Assembly (NCBI GenBank): GCA_964648025.1
Contig: CAZYKP010000021.1
Location: 33,472-97,471, forward strand
Length of the DNA: 64,000 bases
Source: an uncultured Pirellulales bacterium
GTDB taxonomy: Bacteria > Planctomycetota > Planctomycetia > Pirellulales > Pb10988
Reading direction: 5' to 3'
A program made the position numbers and the translations under genes. Below, piece by piece: positions 2,564 through 62,671 of the stretch. Position 1 is the first letter of the stretch; each line of letters begins with the position of its first letter. A model generated the notes under the pieces. The model did no database searches. It had not been told where the DNA came from and saw only the letters and a list, made by a program, of their open reading frames with translations.

Positions 2564-2586
2564 TCTCCGAAAAGAAGTCGATTGAT

Positions 2587-2734
2587 GACTGCTGCCTTCG
2601 GAAAAGTCTTGCTCGGCCAAAACACGCCAGCCGCCGGAACGGCCAGTGATCTGGCAGCTGTTGATCTGCCAGCTGTTGATCTGCCAGCCTCTCCGCTGTG
2701 CCGGACGAGACAGGATTTCCCTCAAACTCAGTAG
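2587..2734 (-). repeat. Family A palindromic interspersed element, copy A1
   Basis: Reverse complement aligns by eye with 3531-3705, 4827-4943 and 55934-56051. Begins ~24 nt after the stop of CDS 272-2563. Carries an internal 3 x 15-bp tandem (gatctgccagctgtt, 2648-2692). Confidence 0.85.
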
Positions 2735-2752
2735 CGGATCATCGAGGTGAGT

Positions 2753-2902
2753 CTACTGGCCTTCGGAGAAGTTTTCGACCCAGGGCTTTCCGTCTGCCCT
2801 TGTTTGTGATGACCTCAACGGGGCAGCCTGAGGCACCACAGCAAGCCCGGATTGCCGGACCAAAGGTGCCCGCTTCGTCGAAGACCTTTCAGGGAACCAG
2901 TG
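2753..2902 (+). repeat. Family B palindromic interspersed element, copy B1
   Basis: Aligns by eye over ~150 bp with 11749-11897 and 20466-20615. Termini are ctactg...cagt(a/g). Central hairpin is ctgcccttg...caagggggcag. Confidence 0.85.
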
Positions 2903-3530
2903 ATTATCAATCCCACCCAAAAAGGCAGAAGAACAAGCCAACTGACCCACTCGGCAGATCCTCATCGGCCAAACATAGGGCAGCGAACTGTCTTTCAGGG
3001 CTGGGATCATCCACCGCAGTGAAGCTTCTTGGTGTCTTGGCCAAGAGGCCTCCGAAATCTCCCATCAGGTCATCAAGGACCGCACTGCCGAGTTGCAAGA
3101 AGTGCTTTCTTTTCGGTCAGTCTCTGAGAGTACGGTGAGCTTACAACCCTGGAGAACGATCTGACGCGGACTTCGATGGTGATGGATGTGGCCCTCTGGA
3201 CCAAAGCAACCTGCCCTTCCCTTCTGGCCGACCTCTCCCTTCGGCACATCAAGTCGCTTCGGAGCATTTCGCCTTGTTTGCCGATTTCGTCTTCTCGGCA
3301 ATCTGAGATGCATCAACTCTCGCCTTTGCGAAGGCAGCTGTTTCAGTAAGAACGCTACCGCCATATAAGTAAATCTCGTGCTCAGTGGCTTGTTGATGGA
3401 GGCTCGGCAGACGGTGCGTTGAGAACCGAAATCCACCGGAAGGCTTCACTACGCGGAGACTGAGCGACGGAAACTTCATCTATTCTTCACCACGGACGGC
3501 TTTTGTCGCCGCTCATCGCTAGACATTCTT

Positions 3531-3705
3531 CTACTGAGGTTGAGGAAAATCTTGGCTCCTGCGGTCCAGCGGAACGGCTGGCAGATCAACAGCTGCCAGA
3601 TCAACAGCTGGCAGATCAACAGCTAGATCAACAGCTGGAAGATCACTGGTCGTTACGGCGGCTCGCGTGTTTTGGACGAGCAAGAAACTTACGAACGCAG
3701 CGGTC
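3531..3705 (+). repeat. Family A element, copy A2 (longest)
   Basis: ctactgaggttgaggaaaatcttggctc ... ttttggacgagcaagaaactt. The internal 15-bp unit (ctggcagatcaacag) is present ~4.5 times (3578-3645). Confidence 0.85.
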
Positions 3706-4801: not shown

Positions 4802-4814
4802 AACGCTCCCATCG

Positions 4815-5345
4815 ATGGGGACTTGCCTACTGAGGTTGAAGAAATTCTGGACTCGCCCGGCACAGCGGAGAGGCGGCCAAATCACTGGTCGTTCCGGCGT
4901 CTCGCGTGCTCTGGCCGAGCAAGATTTTTCCTCAACAGCAGTCGTTGTCTCACTGCTGGCCCTGCTGGCCGGCTGTGGCGAGACTCCCCCGCAGTTCGGG
5001 GAGGTCGAAGGTGTGCTGTACGTGCGGGGTCAGCCGCAGCCGAACATGACGATCCGTTTTATGCCGGATCCGGCCAAGGGAAATGATGTGGCAGCAAACG
5101 CTAGTGGAACGACAGACGCACAAGGCCGTTATCAGCTCCAAAGCACCTTCAAAGGAAAGGATTTTCAAGGGGCCGCCGTGGGCTGGCATAAGGTGTTAGT
5201 CGAGGATCCCCGATTGTCTGCGTTGCCACAAGGACAGGCTCGGCCACCAGAAATCGTCCCCAGAACTTACGGGAACCCAGCCACCACCAAGCTCAGCAAA
5301 GAGGTCAAGCCGGGCCAGCAGACGATCGACCTGAAAATCGATTGA
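4815..5345 (+). CDS. Small lipoprotein partner of the DUF1559 gene (carboxypeptidase-regulatory-like fold likely); start uncertain
   Basis: Lipobox VVVSLLALLAGCGE, then a beta-rich body (EVEGVLYVRGQP...DAQGRYQL). Every in-frame start upstream of the lipobox (ATG 4815, TTG 4836) lies before or inside repeat A3. Confidence 0.6.
   Translation: MGTCLLRLKKFWTRPAQRRGGQITGRSGVSRALAEQDFSSTAVVVSLLALLAGCGETPPQFGEVEGVLYVRGQPQPNMTIRFMPDPAKGNDVAANASGTTDAQGRYQLQSTFKGKDFQGAAVGWHKVLVEDPRLSALPQGQARPPEIVPRTYGNPATTKLSKEVKPGQQTIDLKID
4827..4943 (+). repeat. Family A element, copy A3 (single internal unit)
   Basis: ctactgaggttgaagaaattctggactcgcccggcacagcgg...ggccgagcaagatttttcctcaacagcagtc. Lies between the DUF1559 stop and the lipobox of the next gene. 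Confidence 0.85.
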
Positions 5346-7858: not shown

Positions 7859-8241
7859 GGCCATCAGGCTCCAGACTACAAGGTGCAAAGCGGAAGCCTC
7901 GATCATTGTCTGATCTATTGTGGGTTCCGGATGACAAGACCAGAGCACGCTAGGGCGAACCAAGGCGTGGGGGAGACAGGACCGTGTCGAATTGCCACAA
8001 GGGCTTTGCAGTGACCTCTGCGAGTTCAACATTGACAACCTGTGGCCGGGAACACGGTCATCACCCAAGGGGCAGCCGTGATCGCACCTCAGCATGCCGT
8101 CGGCAAGGCACCAGCCCTTGAACTTGGCAGAACGGTCCATCAACCGATCTCCGGCGTATTGATATCAATGTGTCTAAGAGATGAAAGACCGGCGGGCTGA
8201 TCCCTCAAGCCGCCTCGAGGGAGCGTTCCGAGCGTCTGTCC

Positions 8242-8358
8242 GACTGTTGTGGAGGAAAAATCTTGCCGGTCCGAACTGCGGGAACCGCCGGAAGCATCAG
8301 TGATCTGCCAACCTTTGCGTTGTGCGGGACGAACCAGGAGTTTCCTCAACTTCAGTAA
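8242..8358 (-). repeat. Family A element, copy A4 (more diverged)
   Basis: Reverse complement reads cttttactgaagttgaggaaactcctggttcgtcccgcacaacgc...ggcaagatttttcctccacaacagtc. Confidence 0.75.
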
Positions 8359-9704: not shown

Positions 9705-11267
9705 TTAGTCTTCATCGCCGTCATCTTCATCGCTGTCATCTTCATCGCTGTCATCTTCATCGCTGTCATCTTCGTCCTGATCGTCTTCTTGGTCTTGCTT
9801 CCCGGCGGCGGCAAGGATGGCGTCGATCTGGGCCTCGAAGTCCTCATCGGGGATAGCCATGGGGCCCCCGCGTTTGGGCCGCAGATTCGTGTTGAAGACC
9901 ACATCAGCGATGAGGTTTCCGGCGCGAACCCCTTCGGTTCCGTCGAACCTCCAGTGGACGCCGTTGAACACGCGGCTAGCGGCGTTCTCGGCGGCCGCGT
10001 AGCTAAGGCTTTTGAAGTACCGGGGTACGAGCGGACGGCGGCGATTGAATTGGTCGACAGTCACACCGTTCCACTCCTGGGAGACGAACACGAAGGAAAT
10101 GTCGTCCCGCTGGTAGAAGTTCGCCAGAGTTTTGAAGGCAGCTGCACCAAAGGTGGCGTGGCCCGACGTGTAGGCTGGGAAAGGCGGCGAAAAGTTGTTC
10201 TCGCCGGGCAAGGGATTGCTCCGTGAACCGCCCAAAGCGCACCAGTCCGGATCAGCCTCGGTCAGCGGATTGCCGTCCTCATCGGCCCGTTGGATGCCCA
10301 AAATCGGCCGCCAGTAACGATAAGTGTATTTGCTGTCCCACGCGCTGATGCCGCCATCGGCCATAGCGATATTCAATAACGCGAAAAGACGGGCGTTCTC
10401 GTGGGTCTTGTTCCGTTGCTTCTTGGCGACGACGCGGGCCATCTGGTTGTAGAGGCGGGGTGGGGTGCCAATAAGCGGACTGCCGTTGTAGCTCCAGTAG
10501 TTGGCGATCACATACGTCTCATCGTCGGTGGGCACCACCTGACCCGAGTCACCTCCTCGGAATTCCCCCAACCGTTTCACTTCCTCGAAGGCAACGGCAT
10601 ACTCGAGGCTGTCCAAGGCGGGCGGCTGGGGGGCACGAAATTGGGTGATGTCCTCAACACCGAAGGGCGGCAGCGAGGCGATATCTGGGCTGATGAACGA
10701 TTGATCGATGTTCTTGGGGTCGACATCGTGGTCTCCGGGTTCCCCGGTTGACGTGTAGGTCCCCCCGAGAAACTGCTTATCCTGAGAGCGGAGCTCGAGG
10801 ATCCTTCGTGCGACAATCGTGCCAACCAGCAGGCCTTTGAGCTTTGCTTTTCGGCTGCGGACTCGTTTCAGCGTCTTTAACAACGCCTTGTCGTAAATCT
10901 CCGCTCCTGCTGGAATCAGCTCCTGCAACACATCATAAGCGGCCTTGGCAACCGCAGCGTCGGCAGAAGCCTTTTCCGCCTTGGGCACCAGAGTCAGGTA
11001 CGGCGTGTACCGACAATCGACGGAGTTGTAAGCGTCGAACATCGCCACGTGCACAATGGCCAACACCCGAGCCGACGCCGGCGGCCCCTGCGTGTCGGAA
11101 AGCTCATTACCCGGCAGATCCGGACCGGTGTGATCCAACGCGTTGGCCTTCAGTGCAACCGCATTCCACTCAAGAATGCTATCGACAGGCCGACCGCCCC
11201 AGGCCGAAGCACCCAAAGCGAGGGAGAACAACACACACTGGGCGAAGCAAATCAGTTTCTTCTTCAT
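9705..11267 (-). CDS. PAP2-superfamily / vanadium-haloperoxidase-like secreted protein with poly-acidic C-terminal tail
   Basis: ATG at 11267 gives the signal peptide MKKKLICFAQCVLFSLALGASAWG. All three acid-phosphatase/haloperoxidase motifs are present: KYTYRYWRP, YTSGHA, SRVFNGVHWRFD. Confidence 0.85.
   Translation of the reverse strand: MKKKLICFAQCVLFSLALGASAWGGRPVDSILEWNAVALKANALDHTGPDLPGNELSDTQGPPASARVLAIVHVAMFDAYNSVDCRYTPYLTLVPKAEKASADAAVAKAAYDVLQELIPAGAEIYDKALLKTLKRVRSRKAKLKGLLVGTIVARRILELRSQDKQFLGGTYTSTGEPGDHDVDPKNIDQSFISPDIASLPPFGVEDITQFRAPQPPALDSLEYAVAFEEVKRLGEFRGGDSGQVVPTDDETYVIANYWSYNGSPLIGTPPRLYNQMARVVAKKQRNKTHENARLFALLNIAMADGGISAWDSKYTYRYWRPILGIQRADEDGNPLTEADPDWCALGGSRSNPLPGENNFSPPFPAYTSGHATFGAAAFKTLANFYQRDDISFVFVSQEWNGVTVDQFNRRRPLVPRYFKSLSYAAAENAASRVFNGVHWRFDGTEGVRAGNLIADVVFNTNLRPKRGGPMAIPDEDFEAQIDAILAAAGKQDQEDDQDEDDSDEDDSDEDDSDEDDGDED
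9710..9784. repeat. In-frame 15-bp tandem array (~5 units) encoding the DEDDS-repeat tail
   Basis: cttcatcgc(c/t)gtcat repeated on the plus strand. Translates on the minus strand to DEDDSDEDDSDEDDSDEDDGDED. Confidence 0.9.
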
Positions 11268-11748
11268 CGTGGTCCTCGAGAATGACAGGTTTAACCTTTG
11301 CACTTAGTCAGCTGAGCCCCTTGTTCAGGGAATCCGCTGACTGGAAAAGCCCGTTTGTCGGTAGGAACGATTGCTGGTGATTCCTTCTGCAGCAATTGTT
11401 GGGTCAGTCACTTCGGGTAAGGGATGGGGGTGGGCAACTCAAGATGGAGATGAGCTTTCTTTCCTTAGCGTTTGAGCTGATGCGATCCATACGTCTGTGA
11501 TTGTGAAAGCTCTTGCTCGTCTTGCGTGTTCTGCTTGTTGAGCGACGAAGTCATTCGGTGGGCTGCTGGCTACTTTGTGGACTGAGAGTCGCTTCAGTAT
11601 TTTGTTTCCAGGAGCAAGAAGCTTCCGATCGGTGAGTTAACAAAGGTTGAAGACAATCATCCGTTAACAGTGATGGATGTGTGTCATCGAAGGAGCCTCC
11701 CAGCCAAATGGCGGTAAGGCTTGCAAGGTGTTTGGGCGAAGTTCAGCC

Positions 11749-11897
11749 CTACTGATCTTCGGAGAAGTTTCCGATCCAGGGCTTTCCGTCTGCCCTTGTT
11801 TGTGATGACCTCAAGGGGGCAGCCTGAGGCACCACCGGAAGCCCGGATTGCCGAACGAAACGCCCTGCTTCGTCGAAGACTTTTCAGGGAATCAGTA
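11749..11897 (+). repeat. Family B element, copy B2
   Basis: ctactgatcttcggagaagtttccgatccagggctttccgtctgcccttgtttgtgatgacctcaagggggcagcctgaggcacc...cgaagacttttcagggaatcagta. Confidence 0.85.
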
Positions 11898-12309
11898 AAA
11901 TGCGATGTTTTTTGAAAGGTACTGAGTCCGACCTCAGCGGTCAATCCTCTACGCACTTGGTCGAGTATCACAAACGAAATTTCGATCGCCCCCTGCAGAT
12001 CGATCAGCGGATGAGGGCCTGCCGTTTGACGATCCCGCCTCGTTCTCAACTCTTTTCTGCCAACTTCTTTCTGGCAACTCGTTTCTGGCCCGACCGACTC
12101 ACGTTGTCATTCGTTCTGAAATTCCTTTGGCAAGATGGTGCCACGCGGGCTGGAGGCCGCGAAGAGACTTGGCCCTCTTGGGTGCAACGAACGAGCCGCC
12201 GAGAGCGCGAAGGGCTGTCTCGACGGCTGGGAGTCACCAGAGGGGGTAGGCGTGGGACTGTGCAACGGCCAGGGGAGGCTGGGGCGGCTTTTTGATTCCG
12301 CGACGCGTT

Positions 12310-12375
12310 TTGCCAGTTGGAGACCTTCGGATTGCCAGTTGGAGACCTTCGGATTGCCAGTTGGAGACCTTCGGA
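12310..12375. repeat. 3 x 22-bp perfect tandem array
   Basis: ttgccagttggagaccttcgga x3, ending 5 nt from the stop of the PEP-CTERM gene. The unit resembles the ccaactgccaaatcagaagg arm of family C. Confidence 0.9.
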
Positions 12376-12380
12376 CAGTC

Positions 12381-13775
12381 TCAAGCCTGCCGGCGGGACC
12401 GCCAAGTCGCCAGGCCGAGAAATCCCAGGGACCACAGCCCTCCGGTCGCCGGCTCGGGGATCACTTGCCCGGCGACGCTTCCGCTCAATCTCAATTGGAT
12501 GAACGTCTGATCGGTCGCTGCGTTGTCGCCTGGGCCGTTATCGAGGACAAACCAGAGTTGGTCTCCTGGATTGAGTTCGCCCAGCGGCAGGGTCAGCAGG
12601 CCGGTGGAGGAACCGTCGAGGGTTCCTGTGGCTAGCTCGCTTCCGCTGCCATCGAGAATGGCGAATCCAATGCCATCGCCGCCGGAACCAGGGTTCTCAA
12701 CGAAGTAGCTCAGCACCAAGTCCTCGAGAGAATCGGTCGCTGTGTATTCGATGGCCAGAAACTCAGGGGGCGTGCTGGAGCTGGAGCCGGGGTGCCCGGC
12801 CAGCACGCCAGGCGGCAGCGTCGCAACACCATCAAAGAGGCCATCATCGCTGATCGCCGGAAACGGCCCACAGCAATCGTTAAAGACTGTTCCGGTGCCG
12901 GCATAGCCGTCGCCCCCTTCCAGACCAGTGGAGCCAAATGTCAGCAAGGCCAGTCCACCGTTGGTTGGGTCGCTGTCGGTGTCGCTGTAGTAGTTCCACA
13001 GGCCGGAGTTGGTACCCGAGATACCAAGATCGCTGCTTGTCTGCCCATCTGCCGGGGCTTCGCGATAGTCAGCGGCAAGGTCGGCGATGATCGTCGAAGA
13101 CTCGCCAATGGTGCCGTCGTTGGGGCCGAGCAGCTCAGTCGGATCAAAGGCCCCTGCGAAGGTCGAGACACGAACACGATCGATCGAACCATCAAACACA
13201 CCGTTGGGAACATCAAAGTTGTGGCCGCCGATGGTGATGACGCCCGAGTCGGTCAGGGTGATGTTGCCGTCTCCGCCGCCGCTGTCAAACTCCAAACCGT
13301 TGACGTACAGAGAACTGTCGCCAGCCTCACGGACATAGGCCAGCGCGACGCTTGCAGTAGGAGGGTTGCCATGAGGAAATAGACCTGGAAAACCCACACC
13401 GCTGGTGATGGCTCGCCAGCTTCCACCTTGGGCGACGACCCCGTAGCCGGAATTGGAGCCATCAGCGTTGGTAATCGATGCGGTGAAGTTAAAGACCCCG
13501 AAAGTCTCGGCTGAGACAATCGTCTCCAAAACAACGTTGTCCGTCGCGACCGTCGGTGCCACCGCCTGAATGTAGTCACCGGCCCCATCGAGCACCAGTT
13601 GCCCGTCGACATAGGTCGGGTCGCCAAATTCAGCAAATCCGACCGGCGCCTGATCATCGGCGAAGTCGTAATCCGCCACAGTGATCAGCTGGGCACCCGC
13701 GGTGGTTGTCATTCCAACCAAAGCCCCCAGAAACAAACAGATCTGTGCCATCCGCATCGTGTTTCTCGCAAACAA
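12381..13775 (-). CDS. PEP-CTERM-anchored secreted protein
   Basis: Signal peptide MRMAQICLFLGALVGMTTTAGAQ. C-terminus VIPEPATGGLWSLGFLGLATWRSRRQA fits the PEP motif plus TM plus basic tail. The body is Gly/Asp/Thr-rich and beta-type. Confidence 0.85.
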   Translation of the reverse strand: MFARNTMRMAQICLFLGALVGMTTTAGAQLITVADYDFADDQAPVGFAEFGDPTYVDGQLVLDGAGDYIQAVAPTVATDNVVLETIVSAETFGVFNFTASITNADGSNSGYGVVAQGGSWRAITSGVGFPGLFPHGNPPTASVALAYVREAGDSSLYVNGLEFDSGGGDGNITLTDSGVITIGGHNFDVPNGVFDGSIDRVRVSTFAGAFDPTELLGPNDGTIGESSTIIADLAADYREAPADGQTSSDLGISGTNSGLWNYYSDTDSDPTNGGLALLTFGSTGLEGGDGYAGTGTVFNDCCGPFPAISDDGLFDGVATLPPGVLAGHPGSSSSTPPEFLAIEYTATDSLEDLVLSYFVENPGSGGDGIGFAILDGSGSELATGTLDGSSTGLLTLPLGELNPGDQLWFVLDNGPGDNAATDQTFIQLRLSGSVAGQVIPEPATGGLWSLGFLGLATWRSRRQA

Positions 13776-14497
13776 AGGGTAGGAACCGAGATTGTTCTGA
13801 GCTCCGAACTAAGGTTCGGAATTTCGACAGGAAATCCGTTCTTGGGATGATGTCTCGCCGGACCGATGGAGCATGCTTGGCAACGGGAGGGAGCTGTTGT
13901 GGGTCGGCTTCAAGAACCTGACAGAGCGCCAACACCCAAACCGGCAAGTCAGAGTGTTCCACACTGGCAGTCAGAGCCAACAATCGAAAGCAAAGCAGAT
14001 CCGCCCGATGGTTTCTCGGGGGTCGGTGTTTGGATGTGGTTTTAGGGGGCAAAAGAACCGGACACCAAGGGAAAGTTACCCTAACGGAACGTCCTCTCAA
14101 TAGCAAGGAAATTCGTTGTTTCTTGGGGAAAGGCCGTTGACAGGCTTCAGAGTGCTGGCGATTGGCTTCCATCTTCCAGTCATTGGCGATGAACATCCCT
14201 GGCCTGAGCCAGACAACTGCCGACAGTTTTTTGGACCAGTGGGATGCCTACGCTGAGTCAGACAAGTTTCCGACCCAGGGCAACCAACGGAAGCCCGAAT
14301 CGCCGAGCGTTGATCCGTGGTACCCAGATCACGTTCTGATCGCGACACCTTGCTGGGTCGCGTGCTTCAGCCTGACCGTCGCAGTCATGACGGGCTTGAT
14401 TTGACACCTGCGACACGAGAAGCATAGGTTTTGTGAGGGATTGCGACCGCTTTGGGCGATCTGCAGGCCATTCCCCCAAAAGTCGGGTAACTGACCG

Positions 14498-14598
14498 GCT
14501 GTCCGAAAAGTGTCCCGGCACAACGAGGATTCGTTGCATCAAGACTCGCTAGCCACCAACCGTTGTGCCTCCGCCACTATGTCGGACAGACTTTGAGA
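14498..14598 (-). repeat. Family D element, copy D1
   Basis: Reverse complement matches 57496-57596 with about 6 mismatches in 101 nt (manual alignment). Confidence 0.9.
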
Positions 14599-14690
14599 CA
14601 CAAGACCTGCCGAGGTCCGAGGGCTTACCTTGAGCCCCGCTTGGTTGTCACCTTCTTCATCGCCGTTGGAACCAAAGACGACACAGCACA

Positions 14691-16904: not shown

Positions 16905-16920
16905 TCCCAACTTGCATGAT

Positions 16921-16980
16921 CACATTGGCTTGTAATCACACTGGCTTGTAATTACATTGGCTTGTAATCACACCATTGGT
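16921..16980. repeat. ~3.5 x 16-bp tandem array
   Basis: cacattggcttgtaat / cacactggcttgtaat / tacattggcttgtaat, starting 17 nt after the stop of CDS 14691-16904. Confidence 0.85.
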
Positions 16981-18097
16981 TTCGCACCCCCCGTTGAACA
17001 CAAGTACCCCGCAGTGTCTGGTTGTTCCAAGCAAATCGATCCGCAAATCGGCCTCGACATTGCCACGCGACATCCCCTTCCCGCCGGTGAAAACGTCGGT
17101 TTTGCCGCCGTCATCCAGGCAGAACACTCGACCCCTGCTTGCACAAGGTGATGCCCGAAATGCACCACCGCTCGGCGGTCGTTTGTTGATAGACGCTTAT
17201 CCCATCTTCCGCGTTGATGCAGTGGACCAGACCACTGCATCGGTCGAGAAGGGAGGGATGGCCTTGGCCCTAGGATCGGGGAGGCCATTTGGAGGTCACA
17301 GCGTGGGATCTTCCAGAGAACCGATTCGTTCGAGTGAGCGTCTTGGTTAGGCGTGATATTCCGGAGCCACCCGGTTGGACGGCAAAGAGGAAGCCGCCAT
17401 CATCAGATCCGCCGCGGTTGTGAGACTCGGTGCTGGCGAACAAACGATCCCCAACAGTGAGCGGTGTTGCCGAACTGCGGGCTTGATTCATGTCCAGTTG
17501 CCACAGAAGGTGGCCAATCTGCGGATCGTAGCATCGACAGATCTGACCGACGGCGACCAGCTCATCTCGTTGACTGTTGTGCCAGGTGATCGGCGTGCTG
17601 GACTGCCACGGCTCATCTCGCTTGACCCGCCAGATCTCCTCCCCAGTCTCGGCGACCAGGGCCACTACGGATTCCCTGAAAAGTCTTCGACGAAGCGGGG
17701 CGTTTCGTCCGGCACTTCGGGCTTCCGCCCGTCGCCCTCGGTCGAAGACTGATCTGAGGCTCAGTAACAACGATTGCTCTTGATTGTCGATCTGCAGAAA
17801 AAGCTTCCCTTCAAAGTGTACCGATGAATTCGAGGTGCCCCAGCCGGCCCGCATCAGATAAGTCCCGAAGTCCTTCTGCCACAGTTTCTGGTACCGACTC
17901 TCTTCCGAGGAAAGTGGCTTCTGGCCTGAGGCGACCACCGCCGGTAATCGATTGCTTTCTCGCTGGGTCAATCGCAGCGGTGGGCGTTTGATGAGCTTGA
18001 TGGTGTCCCGCGAAAAGGTACCTGGCCCCTCCAAGCTCGAGGTTTTCCTGAGGTCTCCGACCGAGTGCGGCAGCTCAAACAGCCAAGTCTGTCTCAA
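16936..18097 (-). pseudogene. Decayed PQQ-like beta-propeller gene (frameshifted, repeat-interrupted)
   Basis: Propeller-blade-like strings occur in three different frames: VALVAETGEEIWRV, CYDPQIGHLLWQLD, LVHCINAEDGISVYQQ, VFCLDDGGKTDVF. No signal peptide. A family B copy is embedded at 17665-17767. Confidence 0.6.
17665..17767 (-). repeat. Family B element, copy B4 (internally deleted), inside the PQQ pseudogene
   Basis: ctacggattccctgaaaagtcttcgacgaagcggggcgtttcg...gccctcggtcgaagactgatctgaggctcagtaa. Both arms are present and the central ~50-bp hairpin is missing. It is translated in the ORF as RSAGRNAPLRRRLFRES. Confidence 0.75.
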
Positions 18098-18371
18098 AAT
18101 ACCAATCCGGCTTCGGGCGGCTGGATCGAGCCGCTGGCTGCGTCGGCCTGCATTGACGAATCACCTGTCAGATACGTCTGAGGATGGGATTCGCCTGCTT
18201 CGGCCTCCTTGCCAGCGGCTCGCTCATCTCACCCTCTGGCCGACGAGCCCGTTCTGAGACAGAGCCTAGAATCTTCATAGAAGCTTAGCAGAAAAGCTTG
18301 CTTCCGCCAGAATCTCACAGATGGTAGATTATGGCCGACTCATCGAAGTAAGTCTTTTGGGTTCCTCCTTG

Positions 18372-20035: not shown

Positions 20036-20465
20036 CATTCAGCTGTTGCTCTGGTCCCCTTAGTTGTTGCCCTGGTTCTCCAGCGGCTCGCCTGGGGCTG
20101 ATTGACCCTGACGATCTCGGGCAAATCAAGATTGCTCTAGAAACTTATCCAGAGATTTTTTTCATCAATTTGGGGTCAATTGAATTACTCTAGATTACCA
20201 ACCTTGTCGACGAGGGTATCCCCGTGTCCTTGTTCTCAGAAACGACACCAATGGACGGACCCTCCAAGGTGCTTCCGAAAGCGAAGCAGCACAACACACA
20301 ACGGCCGAAGCGAACACAAGCAGTCCTGAAATGTTCTTTGCTTTTGCTGGTGATCGCCTATGGCCATCCAGGCCTCGCTCTTGCGGATCTTCCTGGTCGG
20401 CTCCACCTGGTTGATGAGGCGGCTCTCCCGCAACCTCCCGCACCGGAAGTCCTCTTTCTGTCGGA

Positions 20466-20615
20466 CTTACTGACCTTAGGAGAAGTGTTCGACCCAGGGC
20501 TTTCCGTCTGCCCTTGTTTGAGATGACCTCAAGGGGGCAGCCTGAGGCACCACCGCAAGCCCGGATTGCCGAACGAAACGCCCCGCTTCGTCGAAGACTT
20601 TTCAGGGAATCAGTA
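20466..20615 (+). repeat. Family B element, copy B3
   Basis: cttactgaccttaggagaagtgttcgacccagggctttccgtctgcccttgtttgagatgacctcaagggggcagcc...cgaagacttttcagggaatcagta. Confidence 0.85.
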
Positions 20616-20845
20616 GTACCAATGCAAGCTCCATCATCAGCAGAAGCGGGTCGGGACGTATCGCCTGATGTGTCAGCCCTTGCATCTGATGCCATAGTGA
20701 TGTGCCGCAGGAGGCCATCGAAGAGCCTTCCCGTCCCGAGGGAGCCACCAACCGCAGTGAAGGGTTGTCGAGCTGGTTGGCCTGCCTAAGATGCCGGAGT
20801 TTACCCAGCTCTTTGGGGGGCCTTAAGAGTTTGATGGGCAGTTGG

Positions 20846-20961
20846 TAGTGCCTTGTTTCCTATGATTTTGGCAGTCGGTTGATTTTGGCAGTCGGTTGGA
20901 CGTGAATCCCCCGATTCCAGGAGAACCAACTGCCAAATCAGAAGGAAACCGACCACTAGGT
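20846..20961 (+). repeat. Family C palindromic element, copy C1 (2 internal 17-bp units)
   Basis: tagtgccttgtttcctatgattttggcagtcggtt(gattttggcagtcggtt)ggacgtgaatcccccgattcc...ccaactgccaaatcagaaggaaaccgaccactaggt. Ends 11 nt before the ATG at 20972. Confidence 0.85.
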
Positions 20962-28877: not shown

Positions 28878-28976
28878 TTGTGCCTTGTTTCCTGGGATTC
28901 TGGCAGTCGGTTCGACGCGGATCCTCCGATTCAACGAGAACCCAATTGGCCAATCAGAAGGCAACGGACCACTCGA
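28878..28976 (+). repeat. Family C element, copy C2 (diverged, one internal unit)
   Basis: ttgtgccttgtttcctgggattctggcagtcggttcgacgcggatcctccgattc...ttggccaatcagaaggcaacggaccactcgac. Confidence 0.75.
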
Positions 28977-31051: not shown

Positions 31052-31153
31052 CCCCCGAGAACTTGTGTCCCCCGAGAACTTGTGTCCCCCGAGAACTTGT
31101 GTCCCCCGAGAACTTGTGTCCCTCGAGCAATTGTGTCCCTCGAGAACTTGTGT
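31052..31153. repeat. 6 x 17-bp tandem array in the trpG leader
   Basis: cccccgagaacttgtgt x4, then ccctcgagcaattgtgt and ccctcgagaacttgtgt. Begins 42 nt upstream of the trpG ATG. Confidence 0.9.
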
Positions 31154-31862
31154 CCAGCCCGGTGTTGTTGCCTTGGGTCTTTCGGGTCCCCACTGAGTGA
31201 GTCTCGCCGGCAATCTGGGACAGTCTCGGGAGGACTAATCCGCCACAAGCCGCCTGCCTTCCTCCGCCGACGAACCAGACCACATTGTGCCACCACCAAC
31301 CCGTTGACACTAGCGGAGCGGTCCCAAACCGCCGTGAAGACAGTCAGCTTCAAGAACCTCACCGATGATCAACAGGTTCAACCAAGTCAAGGGGAATTGA
31401 TCTGCATAAGCTCGCGGGGCGTTGGTATCTGCAGTGAATTTCCAGAAAGCAAGTTGACTGGGAAGGCCGTAGTAAGGCATTCACAAATCCTTAAAATGAT
31501 GCTCCTCTCTCTGAGCACCAATGCCCCAATTCCTTGACGTGCCCGTTGCCAAACTCAATCACACGAACCCCTGACTCCTGAGGGTGAACCAACAATTTCG
31601 CCTCATCGGAGCAAATGTTCTGCCAAAGCGGTTCTATTTCCAGCAATTCCAAGACAACTGTATATTCCACCGAGTTGGTCTGAGCGAGGGGCGAGTCTAC
31701 AATCCCTTAGAGAAATTTTTCACAAACCCTCATGTCATCTTCACACAGCGACGATCGGATCTGGCGGCTGATGGAAGGGTCAAAACCGGTTAGGTGAGGA
31801 TTTTCAACCATCTGAGCCGATCGAGGCGGAAGTCGAAGGACAAGCGTGAGGAGGACTTACTG

Positions 31863-38740: not shown

Positions 38741-40186
38741 ATGCCTACCAAGACAGTGCTCTCGCTCGTGGGAATTTTCGTTGTGCTGGGTGCCGTCGGG
38801 GTGGTCGCCCTGGTTCTGCCAGGGAGCCGTCCCGGTTCGCTGAGGATCGGCGGGGATGCACCTCAAGCTATCGTTGTCGGTGGCCCACAGTATGATTTTG
38901 GCTTACTCGAGGTCGGTCAGACAGGAAGCCATGAGTTTGTCATCCGCAATGAAGGTCCAGGGATTCTCAAGCTGGAGGCTGGCAAACCAAGCTGCAAGTG
39001 CACCAGCTTTACGATTGCCGAGACGGAACTCCAGCCAGGTGAGCAGACCATGGCTGAGGTCGAATGGTCGGGCGATTCATCAATGGTTGCCTTCCGCCAG
39101 ACAGCCCCAGTCAAGACGAACGACCCCAAGAACCCTTCCATTGAGCTGGTGATCACCGGAGAGATCCTGCAACTGGTCGGCGTTGAACCGTCACCTCTGA
39201 CTTTGTCGAGAATCTCTTCCAGCAAAGAGCATCAATCCGAATTTCTGGTTTACAGTCCCGCCGTGGAGCAATTCGAGATCACCTCTATTGAGCCCCAGAA
39301 TCCAGAAACCGCCAAGCAGTTCGAGATCTCCTGGACGCCGGCTGCACAAGACGATTATCAGCCCCTGGGCGGAAAGAGCGGATATCTCTGTACCTTGACT
39401 GTCAAACCTGGTCTGCCATTAGGGCAGTTCAACCAAAAATTCACGATTAAGACCACTGTCCCGCTGAAGCGGAACTCCTTAACACCTGAGCTCAAGGAGA
39501 CTGAGCTCAAGGAGACTGAGCTCAAGGAGACTGAGCTCAAGGAGACTGAGCCCAAGGAGACTGAGCCCAAGGAGACTGAGCTCAAGGACACCCAACAGGA
39601 GGCCTCCCAAGAGGGAGGATCCGCAGAGAAGTCGGGAGACGCTGATGATCCGGGGAACTCAGCAAAGGACGCCGCTGAGCAGCCCAGGCCAGAAACACCC
39701 AGATCAACCGAACCTGGGCCGGAAGAAGCTGGCCCCAAAAAGGTGGATCAGGGTGTGCATCGGGAGAAGGGCGATCAGGTGGCCTCAGTCGAGTGGGTTG
39801 TCCGAGGGGTTGTTGAGGGCGATCTGAGTGTTCTCGGCAACGGGTACGATTCGACGCGTGGACGGCTGACAATCGGACAGGTTCCACGTTTCCAAGGGGC
39901 CAAGAGGCAGCTGCGTCTGTTAGCTCGTGGTCCCCATCGAGATATCACGATCAAGGGCGTCACCACAAACAAACCTGGCATTTTGCTTGCCAAAGTGGGC
40001 CCCAAGAGAACTCTCACCTCCAAGCTTGTCACATTCCCGATTGATATTGAGATCGCCGCGGATGCCCCGGAGATGAACCAAATGGGCACCAAAGCCGGAG
40101 AAATCGGGGTTGTGACCCTCCAGACCGATCACCCGGTCACTCCTCAAGTCCGCATCTTGGTACGTTACGCTGTCTTAGAACAGTGA
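38741..40186 (+). CDS. DUF1573-domain protein with repeat linker
   Basis: TM anchor, then YDFGLLEVGQTGSHEFVIRNEGPGILKLEAGKPSCKCTSF, which is the DUF1573 pattern. An acidic ELKET repeat linker is followed by a second beta-rich domain. Confidence 0.8.
   Translation: MPTKTVLSLVGIFVVLGAVGVVALVLPGSRPGSLRIGGDAPQAIVVGGPQYDFGLLEVGQTGSHEFVIRNEGPGILKLEAGKPSCKCTSFTIAETELQPGEQTMAEVEWSGDSSMVAFRQTAPVKTNDPKNPSIELVITGEILQLVGVEPSPLTLSRISSSKEHQSEFLVYSPAVEQFEITSIEPQNPETAKQFEISWTPAAQDDYQPLGGKSGYLCTLTVKPGLPLGQFNQKFTIKTTVPLKRNSLTPELKETELKETELKETELKETEPKETEPKETELKDTQQEASQEGGSAEKSGDADDPGNSAKDAAEQPRPETPRSTEPGPEEAGPKKVDQGVHREKGDQVASVEWVVRGVVEGDLSVLGNGYDSTRGRLTIGQVPRFQGAKRQLRLLARGPHRDITIKGVTTNKPGILLAKVGPKRTLTSKLVTFPIDIEIAADAPEMNQMGTKAGEIGVVTLQTDHPVTPQVRILVRYAVLEQ
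39488..39592. repeat. In-frame 7 x 15-bp tandem array (ELKET/EPKET)
   Basis: gag(c/t)(t/c)caaggagact x7 inside CDS 38741-40186. Confidence 0.9.
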
Positions 40187-43039: not shown

Positions 43040-43172
43040 TAGTGCCTTGTTTGCTAGGATTTTGGCAGTCGGTTGATTTGGGCAGTCGGTTGATTTTGGC
43101 AGTCGGTGGGACGTGAATCCCCCGATTCCACGAGAACCAGCTGCCAAATCAGAAGGAAACCGACCACTAGGT
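43040..43172 (+). repeat. Family C element, copy C3 (3 internal 17-bp units)
   Basis: Same arms as C1, with gatttt/gatttgggcagtcggt(t) x3. Confidence 0.85.
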
Positions 43173-48580: not shown

Positions 48581-48622
48581 GGCGAGTTCAGTTGGGCGAG
48601 TTCAGTTGGGCGAGTTCAGTTG
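48581..48622. repeat. 3 x 14-bp tandem array
   Basis: ggcgagttcagttg x3, 39 nt after the stop at 48542. A second array of about 3 x 16 bp (cagcggtctcccaag-like) lies at 48841-48888. Confidence 0.85.
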
Positions 48623-51368: not shown

Positions 51369-51430
51369 GGGGCCCCTCAGCAGAACTCTCGCGGAGATCC
51401 CTGAGTTGCAAGACGATGTGCTTGTGGTCG

Positions 51431-51577
51431 AGTGATTCCGGGAAAAGTTCTCAACGACAACATTGCGGAAGGACCGAGGGTCCGGGCTTGCGGTGGTACC
51501 GCTGGCTGCCCCCTTTGGTCATCAAAAACAAGGGCAGACTGACATCTCTGGGCCAAAAACTTGCCTGAAACTCAGTC
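51431..51577 (-). repeat. Family B element, copy B5 (diverged)
   Basis: agtgattccgggaaaagttctcaacgac...gggcttgcggtggtaccgctggctgccccctttggtcatcaaaaacaagggcagac...ctgaaactcagt. Confidence 0.7.
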
Positions 51578-51626
51578 AAGGTCAACGTGAAGGCGAGGTC
51601 CTGGGTTCTTGACTGGACCTTGCTGG

Positions 51627-52220: not shown

Positions 52221-54503
52221 GTGTTAGTCCAAATCGTGAAATATCCTGTTAAGAACGGATTTCGCCTTGTTCTCATTCAGGGATGCCTGTTGGTGTTGCT
52301 GATGAGTGAATTGTTAAGTGCTGGAGACCCCCGCATCGTGTACCCGGAAACCTGTCGAGTCGAGCAAGTCGACGTTTATCACGGAGTTGAAGTCGCTGAT
52401 CCTTATCGCTGGTTGGAAAACGACGTGCGGGAGGATCCTCAAGTGGAACAGTGGGTCGAGGCCCAGAATCAGGTAACCTTTGGCTACCTCAAGGAGATCC
52501 AGGAGCGGGAGTCTCTCCGCCAGCGGTTGACAGATTTGTGGGACTATCAGAAGTACTCGGCTCCCTTCAAGGAGGGAGGACGGTACTACTTCTTCAAAAA
52601 CGATGGCCTCCAGAATCAGTCCGTTCTCTACTTACAAAAGTCCCTGGACGAAAAACCCCAAGTATTGATTGATCCCAATACTTGGAGCGAAGATGGCACC
52701 ATCGCCCTTGCAGGGACCTCCTTCAGCGACGATGGACGCTACGTCGCTTACGGCATCGCTGAGGCTGGCAGCGACTGGCGAACGTGGAAAATCATGGAGA
52801 TCGAGAGCCGGCGGGTCCTGGACGACGAACTTCGCTGGATCAAGTTTTCTCGGATCAGTTGGACTCGCGATAGTCGTGGTTTTTTCTATAGTCGCTATAG
52901 CGAACCTCAGGAGGGAGAGGAATTTCAGAGTCTCAACCTCAACCACAAACTCTACTACCACCGCCTTGGCACAGCCCAAGCTGACGATGTGCTCGTCTAC
53001 AAACGACCCGATCAGCCGAAGTGGAGTTTTTTTGGTGAGGTGACCGAAGATGGCCGGTACCTGATCATCACCGTTGGCAAAGGAACCGATCGAAAATACC
53101 GTGTCTTGGTCAAAGATCTTGACGAACCTTACGGGATGCCCGTCGAACTCATCGACCACTTCCGCGACGAGTATTCCTTGATCGGCAACGACGGCCACGT
53201 GCTCTACTTTCAAACGGATCTGGACGCTCCTCGGGGACGAGTCATCGCTATCGATCTGCACAAGCAACCGGCAGGTCGGCAAACCTCATCGAAACAGCCC
53301 TTGCAAGCAGAACGCGGCCAAACCGAAAGTGATCAAGAGCAACCCGCAGAAGCAGAACCTGCCAAGACAGACAAGCTGGACTACCAAGAGGTCATTCCCC
53401 AGGCCGAGCAGACGCTCTCGTCGGTCAGTTTGCTGGGGAATTGCTTTGTTGCCTCGTATTTGCAGGACGCTCACTCTGTCGTCAAGCTCTTCAGCGTCGA
53501 CGGTCAGTTTGTGCGGGACATTGAGTTGCCAGGCTTGGGCAGTGCGTCAGGTTTTTCTGGTCGACGAAGTGATACCGAGACGTTTTATTTGTTCTCCAGT
53601 TTCGCCACCCCACCAAGCACCTATCGCTACAATTTGATCACCGGGCAGAGCACCTTACTACGTCGAGCCGAAGTCGAGTTTGACCCGGATGACTATGAGG
53701 TCAAGCAAGTCTTTTACAACAGCAAAGACGGCACCAAGGTCCCTATGTTCCTGACCTGCCGCAAAGGTCTGACTCTGGATGGGAACAACCACACACTGCT
53801 TTACGGTTACGGCGGATTCAACATCCCGCTGACACCGCGGTTCTCCGTCGCCCGTCTCGCGTGGCTGGAGCTGGGTGGGGTCTTGGCGGTGGCCAATCTG
53901 CGTGGAGGAGGCGAGTACGGAGAGCAATGGCACCAAGCGGGGACTCGTCTGAACAAACAAAATGTCTTTGACGACTTTATTGCCGCCGCGGAATGGCTGA
54001 TCGAGCAGAAGTACACTCAACCGGCGAAGCTTGCAATCGAAGGGGGGAGCAACGGGGGGCTGCTGGTCGGTGCCGTGATGACTCAGCGTCCCGAGTTATT
54101 TGGAGCGGCCCTGCCGGCGGTCGGGGTGATGGACATGCTGAGGTTTCATCAATTCACCGCTGGTCGGTTCTGGGTCGACGATTACGGCTCGGCCGAAGAT
54201 CCCCAGCAATTTCGGGCCCTCTATGCGTACAGCCCTTATCACAACTTGAAGCCCGGCGTGGTCTACCCGCCGACTTTGGTGACCACTGCCGATACCGACG
54301 ACCGGGTGGTCCCCGGCCACAGTTTCAAGTTCGCCGCTCGTCTCCAGAAGTGCCACGCGGGGGAGGGGCCGGTTCTCATCCGGATCGAGACTCGGGCGGG
54401 CCATGGGGCCGGCAAGCCAACAGCCAAGGTGATTCAGGAACAAGCCGATAAATACGCTTTTCTCCTCAAGACATTGAAGATCGACCTGGGGCAACAGCCG
54501 TAG
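52221..54503 (+). CDS. Prolyl oligopeptidase (S9A)
   Basis: VADPYRWLEND at the N-terminus. Catalytic GGSNGGLLVGA, DDRVVPGHSFKF and AGHGAGKP. GTG start. A low-complexity insert sits at ~53255-53400. Confidence 0.9.
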   Translation: MLVQIVKYPVKNGFRLVLIQGCLLVLLMSELLSAGDPRIVYPETCRVEQVDVYHGVEVADPYRWLENDVREDPQVEQWVEAQNQVTFGYLKEIQERESLRQRLTDLWDYQKYSAPFKEGGRYYFFKNDGLQNQSVLYLQKSLDEKPQVLIDPNTWSEDGTIALAGTSFSDDGRYVAYGIAEAGSDWRTWKIMEIESRRVLDDELRWIKFSRISWTRDSRGFFYSRYSEPQEGEEFQSLNLNHKLYYHRLGTAQADDVLVYKRPDQPKWSFFGEVTEDGRYLIITVGKGTDRKYRVLVKDLDEPYGMPVELIDHFRDEYSLIGNDGHVLYFQTDLDAPRGRVIAIDLHKQPAGRQTSSKQPLQAERGQTESDQEQPAEAEPAKTDKLDYQEVIPQAEQTLSSVSLLGNCFVASYLQDAHSVVKLFSVDGQFVRDIELPGLGSASGFSGRRSDTETFYLFSSFATPPSTYRYNLITGQSTLLRRAEVEFDPDDYEVKQVFYNSKDGTKVPMFLTCRKGLTLDGNNHTLLYGYGGFNIPLTPRFSVARLAWLELGGVLAVANLRGGGEYGEQWHQAGTRLNKQNVFDDFIAAAEWLIEQKYTQPAKLAIEGGSNGGLLVGAVMTQRPELFGAALPAVGVMDMLRFHQFTAGRFWVDDYGSAEDPQQFRALYAYSPYHNLKPGVVYPPTLVTTADTDDRVVPGHSFKFAARLQKCHAGEGPVLIRIETRAGHGAGKPTAKVIQEQADKYAFLLKTLKIDLGQQP

Positions 54504-55879: not shown

Positions 55880-55933
55880 AACACTCGGCCGCTGGCGCCA
55901 CAAAGGCACCTTGCACCTTGAACCTTGCTTCGC

Positions 55934-56051
55934 CTGCGGAGGTTGCGGAAAATCTTGGCTTGTCCGGCCCAGCGGAAAGGCTGCCAATTCACCGGTCATT
56001 CCAACTGCTGGCGTGTTTTGGCCGAGCAAGAATCTTCCGATCGCAGCAGTC
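55934..56051 (+). repeat. Family A element, copy A5
   Basis: cctgcggaggttgcggaaaatcttggcttgtccggcccagcggaaaggctgcc...ttttggccgagcaagaatcttccgatcgcagcagtc. Confidence 0.8.
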
Positions 56052-56102
56052 ACACGTCTCGCCTCACTTGCCTCGCCCCACTCGACTTTGGGAAGAAAAC
56101 GG

Positions 56103-57313: not shown

Positions 57314-57495
57314 GCTGTTTCTCCTGCATGAGATGGTTGATGATGAGATTTCTGTGAACTACCCCTCTCTTTCAACGCTTGGGTGCAGGGTGTTTTTCTG
57401 GATTGCTCGTACCTCGACTGTTCCAGATCGTGGCAGAGGTCCAACCTGGAGTGCCCTCAACAAATCCAGGCAAGAACATCTGGGTGAGCACAAGG

Positions 57496-57596
57496 TCTCA
57501 GAGTCTGTCCGAAATAGTGGCGGAGGCACAACGGCTGGTGGCTCACGAGTCTTGATGCAACGAATCCTCGTTGTGCCGGGACACTTTTCGGACAGT
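57496..57596 (+). repeat. Family D element, copy D2
   Basis: tctcagagtctgtccgaaatagtggcggaggcacaacggctggtggctcacgagtcttgatgcaacgaatcctcgttgtgccgggacacttttcggacagt. It is the inverted counterpart of 14498-14598. Confidence 0.9.
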
Positions 57597-57602
57597 CACT
57601 CA

Positions 57603-57670
57603 GAGGTTGAGGGTTCTCAGAGGTTGAGGGTTCTCAGTGCTTGAGGGTTCTCAGTGCTTGAGGGTTCTCA
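57603..57670. repeat. 4 x 17-bp tandem array abutting D2
   Basis: gaggttgagggttctca x2, then gtgcttgagggttctca x2. Confidence 0.9.
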
Positions 57671-58053
57671 GGGGGCAGGAGGTTTTGGGACAAGGGCTAC
57701 ATCTGGGCCTTTCCAACGATCTGAGTTTGTCGGCAGTGTTCGTCCCAGGTTGGATTCCTCGTGAAGCCCGAAGAGCGTACTGCCTCTGGACTCAATCCAG
57801 CGGACTCGTTGGTTTTGAGGGGCTCAGATTTGTCAAACTGCAAGACCGGAGTTGCAAGACCAGAACTGCTGAAACGTATCCTTGGGGCCTGACCCTGGTG
57901 AGGTGGCCATCAAGAGGCTAGACTCCCCTCGGCATAGGCTGCTACTTCTGCAAGGTCGTTCCGACTCCACTGCTCTATTCTGGGAACGGTGGGAGGCCCA
58001 TCTCTCAGGGAGCGTTCCTACCTTCCCAACTGGCTCTCGACACTGGTTGCTTT

Positions 58054-62591: not shown

Positions 62592-62671
62592 CTTAAAGAC
62601 TGTGACGCTTAAAGACTGTGACGCTTAAAGACTGTGACGCTTGAAGACCGTGACGCTTGAAGACTGTGATC
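62592..62671. repeat. 5 x 16-bp tandem array
   Basis: cttaaagactgtgacg x3, then cttgaagaccgtgacg and cttgaagactgtgatc. Lies in the convergent intergenic region between 62511 and 62731. Confidence 0.9.

Follow-up and report, generated by a model that had tools for sequence, protein, structure and literature searches.

Copies of family B in the window

The element at 11749-11898 raises the question of what kind of DNA it is and how it spreads through the genome that carries it. A first-pass annotation of the window (the whole 64,000-nt stretch of DNA analysed here) had described it as one of five copies of a ~150-bp family, named family B. We ran nhmmer on the window with a profile that combined the best three copies and recovered all five, each within 1-3 nt of its annotated coordinates, and identified a sixth, fragmentary copy that had been missed. 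The six consist of three full copies, one diverged full copy, one short form and one degenerate fragment. The full copies, all on the + strand, are located at 11749-11898 (the focal copy, whose span includes the flanking C-TA ... TA-A; E = 2e-58 at 11743-11903), at 2753-2903 (E = 2e-56 at 2747-2909; 18 nt from a copy of another repeat, family A, ending at 2734) and at 20467-20616 (E = 1e-58 at 20460-20620). Their pairwise identity is 90-93%, the copy at 2753-2903 being 90% identical to the other two. The diverged copy at 51429-51579 on the - strand (E = 2e-22 at 51430-51578), with the TerC stop codon ~60 nt before its start, is ~70-72% identical to the three full copies. The short form of ~105 bp at 17664-17770 on the - strand, matched by nhmmer in two segments (17664-17727 and 17734-17770, E = 1e-16) and by alignment, keeps both termini without the central hairpin module and shows 74-82% identity over 103 nt, with 47 aligned columns missing between CCCAGGGC and GGCACC. 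This 47-column gap is common to the short form and to the sixth copy at 14245-14322 (+), a right-truncated short-form fragment recognized by its repeat pairing with the short copy, a weak nhmmer match and alignment. Independent confirmation of the boundaries came from contigs of other loci, whose match to the focal copy breaks off at 11749 (left) and 11897-11900 (right).

The window itself is a stretch of ordinary planctomycete chromosome, with genes for a DUF1559 protein with an N-terminal methylation motif, a sulfatase, a DUF1573 protein, NadA, aspartokinase, TerC and an S9 peptidase among others. All six copies are intergenic, in gaps of 0.85-1.4 kb between Pfam-supported genes, and they face either way relative to the neighbouring genes.

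Terminal inverted repeats and hairpins

The left terminal inverted repeat at 11749-11775 is composed of the flank C-TA, CTGA, 7 variable nt and a GAGAAGTTTCCGAT box, and it pairs in the predicted folds with the right terminal inverted repeat at 11872-11898, which reads GTCGAAGACTTTTCAGGGAATCAG followed by TA and A and was placed by repeat alignment and the consensus fold. Aligned without gaps, the two form a 27-nt imperfect inverted repeat (CTACTGACCTTCGGAGAAGTTTTCGAC versus CTACTGATTCCCTGAAAAGTCTTCGAC) in which 20 of the 27 positions match. Its score of 26, against 11.7 +/- 2.6 in shuffles, was reached in 1 of 2000 shuffles, and the inverted termini that had been claimed are therefore statistically real. 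The claim that they read CTACTG...CAGTAG, however, does not extend to the outermost C...G, which varies among the window copies (C/A, C/A, T/G and T/G). Each terminus has two conserved parts, the tips CTGA...TCAG and an inner box, GARAAGTYTTCGAC, separated by ~7 variable nt. This arrangement of a conserved tip and inner box with a variable linker resembles the binding and cleavage sites of a transposase.

The central hairpin at 11790-11822 (CTGCCCTTG-loop-CAAGGGGGCAG, with the stem CUGCCCUUG/CAAGGGGGCAG) was also part of the earlier description, and it appears in both the minimum-free-energy fold and the consensus fold, as does a second small hairpin, GGCACCACCGGAAGCCCGGATTGCC, at 11828-11852. 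The module missing from the short forms, delimited by contig skips and the 47-column gap, is ~48-53 nt long (11783-11835), and the conserved interior of the full element is 95 nt. With 150 bp in the full element and 105 bp in the short form, family B has the size of miniature inverted-repeat transposable elements (MITEs; non-coding, about 70-300 bp), and its 27-nt termini are within the 15-30 bp of MITE terminal inverted repeats.

Copy number in stromatolite metagenomes

Stromatolite metagenome runs hold the DNA of the window, with 99% of the sampled words present in run X1, 97% in X2 and ~65% in X3 and X4. We mapped run contigs on 11000-12600 and summed the k-mer depth over the element and its flanks. 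The summed depth of element and flanks was ~6800 vs 7.3 in X1 and ~5400 vs 7.7 in X2; in X3 and X4 the element reached ~2060 and ~1900, with ratios to the flanks of roughly 300-500, and across the four runs the ratio ranged from 300 to over 1000. Because overlap between unitigs may double-count, we take these depths to mean copy-equivalents from several hundred up to roughly 1000. To our knowledge, hundreds to ~1000 copies of one family are near the top of what is reported for bacteria. The depth profile has sharp edges at 11749 and 11897-11900, and in 9-nt bins on the copy at 20467-20616 it rises to maxima of 11,000-13,000 at the hairpin and at the right terminus, the right-terminus stretch having the deepest k-mer coverage of the element.

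In each run, 91-167 contigs pass from the element into unrelated sequence, so that the copies, like the six in the window, are dispersed with unrelated flanks as is typical of MITEs. In X1 the listed junction contigs reach depths of 5.8-10.2 and in X2 of 5.1-8.1, matching those of the unique contigs of the window, which indicates that the copies belong to a genome of equal abundance. There are thus hundreds of family B copies, probably in the same genome, and some could sit in co-occurring relatives. The density in the window (5-6 copies per 64 kb) would extrapolate to several hundred copies per planctomycete-sized genome. Depth and junction contigs together show many copies beyond those of the window and support the earlier view of a mobile-looking repeat. 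In a run of another study (X6, 2021), which contained none of the unique DNA of the window, there was a single full copy that carries 4 differences and has another flank, again C-TA. No family B copy was found in scans of JGI metagenome contigs and viral contigs, or in plasmids by blastn.

Short-read assemblies break at the element, with contigs ending at 11805, 20427 and 17691, and the short Logan contigs on which the window proteins were recovered stop at the repeats or close to them. Such contig ends might raise the suspicion that the element arose in the source contig through misassembly or chimera formation, but it occurs with many different flanks in five independent runs of one study and in one of another, and the flank-element junctions of the window are reproduced exactly by X1 and X2 contigs, which leaves this suspicion next to no credibility.

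Sub-families and variation in the population

We compared the copy at 20467-20616, whose right half is nearest to the population consensus by depth and variant profile, with the population contigs. Variants at a share of at least 4% occur only at 20554, 20556, 20569, 20572, 20579 and 20584, clustered in 20554-20584 between the second hairpin and the right terminus, and none reaches this share in the central hairpin or the right terminus. The six variable sites mirror the differences among the window copies and thus look like sub-family markers; the private changes of individual copies are each rare in the population. Contigs from other loci skip from 11782 to 11831 and from 11782 to 11836, the short-form junction CAGGGC|GACCAACGGAAGCCC is read by 6-9 contigs, and the loop variant ACC-AAAGGGGGC of the diverged copy is common to 14-16 other contigs. 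The short and the diverged copies noted in the first-pass annotation are therefore not one-off products of decay, since both types recur in many other contigs: family B comprises long, short (without the ~50-nt hairpin module) and diverged long sub-families. The short form would probably have arisen by deletion between the similar stretches CAGGGC and GAGGC, and would then probably have been amplified independently.

Open reading frames across the copies

The ORFs 2698-3138, 11721-11915 and 20514-20789 overlap family B copies, and it could be asked if the element instead belongs to protein-coding sequence, as a piece of a gene or as a repeated domain. Frames +2 and -2 of the consensus are indeed free of stops, and ORFs of 64-146 aa overlap the copies. 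By calculation, however, a random 49-codon frame at this GC content stays open in ~16% of cases, which gives an expectation of ~1 open frame in 6, and the consensus translation shares three 5-residue words with none of 5.8 billion proteins. With open frames at the level of chance and no protein relative, the ORFs across family B are artefacts, as the first-pass annotation had held. At 47 nt, the length difference of the short form is not divisible by three, and all copies lie between Pfam-supported genes, so that a coding origin is hardly conceivable. Family B thus creates spurious ORF calls, in addition to breaking the short-read assemblies of this organism.

A 275-aa ORF at 17270-18097(-) runs through the short-form element. 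Its sole domain match, to PQQ_2 at aa 143-224, is below the curated cut-off and begins directly after the element; the ORF probably represents either a piece of a gene or a short gene with an artificial upstream extension supplied by the element.

Flanks and target site

The four intact window copies, with the tips CTGA...TCAG, are flanked by C-TA/TG-A, C-TA/TA-A, T-TA/TA-G and T-TA/TA-G, that is, by TA on both sides in three of the four and by TG on the right in the fourth. Target duplications of 3-9 bp were rejected because no longer direct repeat fits the window copies. Among the left flanks in X1, 23 contigs read C-TA, 9 read TA with T as the consensus of the preceding base and 6 keep the A only; in the population contigs the preceding base is C in ~60% and mostly T otherwise. 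On the right, the match ends after CAG in 13 contigs, CAGT in 15, CAGTA in 17, CAGTAG in 13 and CAGTAGT in about 5, so that T is kept in ~79%, the following A in ~70% and the following G in ~51%, after which agreement falls to background. The outer C/G is far less constant than the interior and behaves as target context, Y-TA-[element]-TA-R. Exact TA occurs at only ~55% of the right junctions, a low share for a strict TA-targeting family, although the count also takes in old, diverged copies and contig ends with little coverage.

The search for target-site duplications that had been proposed as a check consequently gave a mixed outcome: TA flanks within a YTAR context are present, on both sides in three of the four window copies, but TA is its own reverse complement and, at the flanks, might belong to the inverted repeat instead of being a duplication. 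As for empty sites and insertion polymorphism, no contig skips an element in the six runs. The best database homologue of the S9 prolyl oligopeptidase at 52221-54503 is 69% identical, its homologues being named Planctomycetaceae, Gemmataceae and Thalassoroseus; this implies an organism without a close sequenced relative and, 69% being the closest match of a neighbouring protein, leaves no usable orthologous empty site. Insertion at TA within YTAR, with duplication of the TA, fits these data but is not proven by them.

A proposed transposition mechanism and its alternatives

Taken together, family B is likely to be a new MITE family, MITEs being a well-known kind of selfish DNA; in the best reading, a DDE transposase that generates 2-bp duplications would mobilize it in trans. 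Such an enzyme, encoded elsewhere in the genome, would bind the inner box and cut at the tips. Insertion would occur at TA, preferably in 5'-YTAR-3', and duplication of the TA would yield the flanks Y-TA-[CTGA...TCAG]-TA-R; effects on neighbouring genes would be by-products. None of the 49 window ORFs scanned matches a transposase family, and the window yielded no autonomous element with corresponding ends.

Few prokaryotic groups make 2-bp duplications, which makes an IS630/Tc1-mariner-type transposase the likeliest partner, with the IS427 group of the IS5 family as an alternative that could be envisaged; the IS630 type specifically is nevertheless a tentative assignment, one that we would sooner doubt than assert. 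Insertion of IS630-family elements takes place at TA and generates a 2-bp duplication, with CTAG as the preferred target of IS630 itself (PMC2170065, citing Tenzen 1990/1991). In IS630/Tc1-mariner MITEs, as in IS630 and ISY100, terminal repeats of ~24-27 bp suffice in cis and insertion is at TA. The flanks Y-TA...TA-R of family B are compatible with this type. Family B departs from it in its tips, which start with CTGA, and in its right junctions, of which only ~55% are exactly TA, and no IS630-type transposase with matching ends is encoded among the 49 window ORFs scanned. Elements of the IS427 group have 2-bp direct repeats, as family B may have, and 13-21-bp terminal repeats (PMC3281130, Table 2); no matching IS427-group insertion sequence was found in the window ORFs scanned. 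The TA/YTAR preference and the two-part terminal repeat raise the question of an IS630-like enzyme in planctomycetes, and family B lends itself to finding out which transposase is behind such bursts.

An entirely different mode of spread would be that of REPINs, in which two inverted GTAG-tagged REP units are propagated by a RAYT (an IS200/IS605-like tyrosine transposase) via single-stranded hairpin DNA. The planctomycete R. baltica has GTAG-tagged REP families and many tyrosine transposase genes, and REPs are 20-40-bp stem-loop units with stems of mostly 6-9 bp and the GTAG tag beside the stem (PMC3733652). Family B shares with such REPs and REPINs the high, REP-like copy number, the intergenic location, the GTAG/CTAC ends and large hairpins (PMC3733652); its ends read ...CAGTAG on both strands, and the element folds into one long hairpin. 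However, its terminal 27-35 nt pair with the opposite end and are not self-complementary, its tag polarity is reversed (5'-CTAC...GTAG-3' on each strand), its outer G/C varies with the final G in only about half of the copies, and it contains a 95-nt interior. In addition, the 64 kb showed no REP-like unit, and the scanned window ORFs include no RAYT and no match to a Y1-transposase family. Because the termini pair with each other and are not self-contained stem-loops, the polarity is reversed and the outer base varies, we rejected membership in the REP/REPIN class, and spread by a RAYT appears quite unlikely.

Evidence for and against a structured RNA

Family B might also be primarily a functional structured RNA or a regulatory module under selection, for example an mRNA-stabilizing or processing hairpin or a small RNA, with mobility as a secondary property. 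In keeping with this, the hairpin and the right terminus lack variants at shares of at least 4% while six sites vary in 20554-20584, and the diverged copy keeps four consecutive pairs of the terminal stem as G-U on the + strand of the element. The Correia and ERIC MITEs, moreover, are co-transcribed and processed. On the other hand, the six variable sites look like sub-family markers and not like relaxed constraint, and the tally of base pairs over the four aligned copies, with 12 preserved through a change on one side and 10 disrupted, is close to the neutral expectation. The whole element folds end to end on both strands alike (z = -2.6 and -2.1), and this similar fold energy is expected from symmetry at the DNA level and not from a strand-specific RNA. 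No Rfam 15 family matched the window at the gathering score (the best match at a relaxed threshold had E = 3.5 and 10 bits), no promoter-like or terminator-like site was detected in 11300-12400, and the copies stand in both orientations relative to the neighbouring genes. Overall, a primary role as RNA is very unlikely. An integron attC or a terminator-like function was rejected because no T-run follows the hairpin on either strand.

Other repeat families of the window

The window contains further 100-190-bp intergenic repeats, families A, C and D, which like family B have inverted termini. Their interiors show no relation to that of family B, those of A and C holding variable 15- and 17-nt tandem units. 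Family A (135-190 bp) has copies at 2586-2734(-), 3514-3705(+), 4810-4944(+), 8241-8357(-) and 55917-56052(+), and its depth is ~55x that of the flanks by a rough conversion of bin depths. Its left end in the aligned copies is CTACTGAGGTTGAGGAAAATCTT; its right ends read inward GACTGCTG(TTGAGG/CCTTCGG)AAAAGTCTT, the right end being ...AAGATTTTTCC..CAGCAGTC, and terminate in CAGTC where family B has CAGTA. An internal tandem of the 15-nt unit AGATCAACAGCTGGC is absent from three copies and has ~3-5 units in the other two.

The first-pass annotation had suggested from the shared CTACTG that families A and B use the same machinery. The kinship goes beyond this hexamer: the two-part motif ACTG-N5-12-RAARTYTT is shared by their termini, with seven of its eight matches (0.4 expected) located there. 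The motif supports, short of proof, the idea that one enzyme, or two closely related ones, may mobilize both families.

Family C (roughly 100-130 bp; 20846-20961, 43040-43172 and 28878-28975) is flanked by (C)TA-GTGCC...GACCAC-TA-G, with ends (C)TAGTG...CACTAG and 1-3 internal copies of the 17-nt unit GATTTTGGCAGTCGGTT, and its k-mer depth in the metagenome runs is at least that of family B. Family D (~105 nt) has two copies that are 93% identical, at 14491-14599(+) and 57495-57603(-), with inverted ends CTGTCCGA.A.AGTG and a depth of ~60x the flanks by rough conversion; the copy at 57495 adjoins a 17-nt tandem array at 57599-57671. Families C and D are further MITE-like repeats. Several unrelated-looking MITE families thus occupy the unusually long intergenic regions of this poorly sampled planctomycete lineage.

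Elsewhere in the genome, family B copies stand head-to-tail or tail-to-tail at distances of 2-10 nt, and they also border immediately on copies of families A and C, as read from the joints of contigs on 11749-11903, 17744-17770, 20612-20620, 2587 and 2751. Such joints imply that the repeats cluster in nests.

Two departures from the MITE reading deserve mention here. Families A-D could form a host-integrated network of >1000 structured intergenic modules, whose invariant central hairpin might act at the RNA or DNA level, in transcript processing or stability or in nucleoid organization; or the mobility of family B might depend on a kind of transposase that has so far not been associated with TA/YTAR targeting. 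We regard it as unlikely that either one or the other applies.

Comparison with Correia elements

Correia elements (CREE or NEMIS) of Neisseria are about 150 bp long, with imperfect inverted repeats of ~26 nt and TA at both ends. They exist in hundreds of mostly intergenic copies and in two size classes that differ by an internal deletion of ~50 bp, and an IHF site, promoters and RNase III processing have been described for them. Family B shares with them the length of ~150 bp, terminal repeats of 26-27 nt, TA flanks and a variant with a ~50-bp deletion, and in neither case is a cognate transposase identified nearby; in our comparison, the Correia elements appear to be the closest in architecture to the MITE family described here. 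The likeness is architectural only, with no resemblance recognized between the terminal sequences, and family B differs in belonging to another phylum (Planctomycetota) and in an apparently higher copy number. NEMIS is listed among bacterial MITEs (PMC3733652); in the literature searched, no MITE is reported for Planctomycetota, from which only REP-type repeats are described (PMC3733652). Family B would also be a ready marker for strain typing.

Additional multi-copy and tandem sequences

A further multi-copy stretch at ~18139-18231, directly upstream of the acetyl-xylan-esterase gene, has a depth of 40-60 in run X5 against 2-3 for unique sequence, and contigs break within it at 18164-18173. 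Tandem Repeats Finder reported 28 rows of short arrays, some of them overlapping, with periods of 13-22 nt apart from one of 9 and one of 30 (for example 31052-31155, 12310-12375, 62592-62669, 57599-57671, 16919-16972 and 48581-48622). Many are intergenic, with periods that are not multiples of three; period-15 arrays inside genes (39486-39588 and 61031-61137) would encode pentapeptide repeats.
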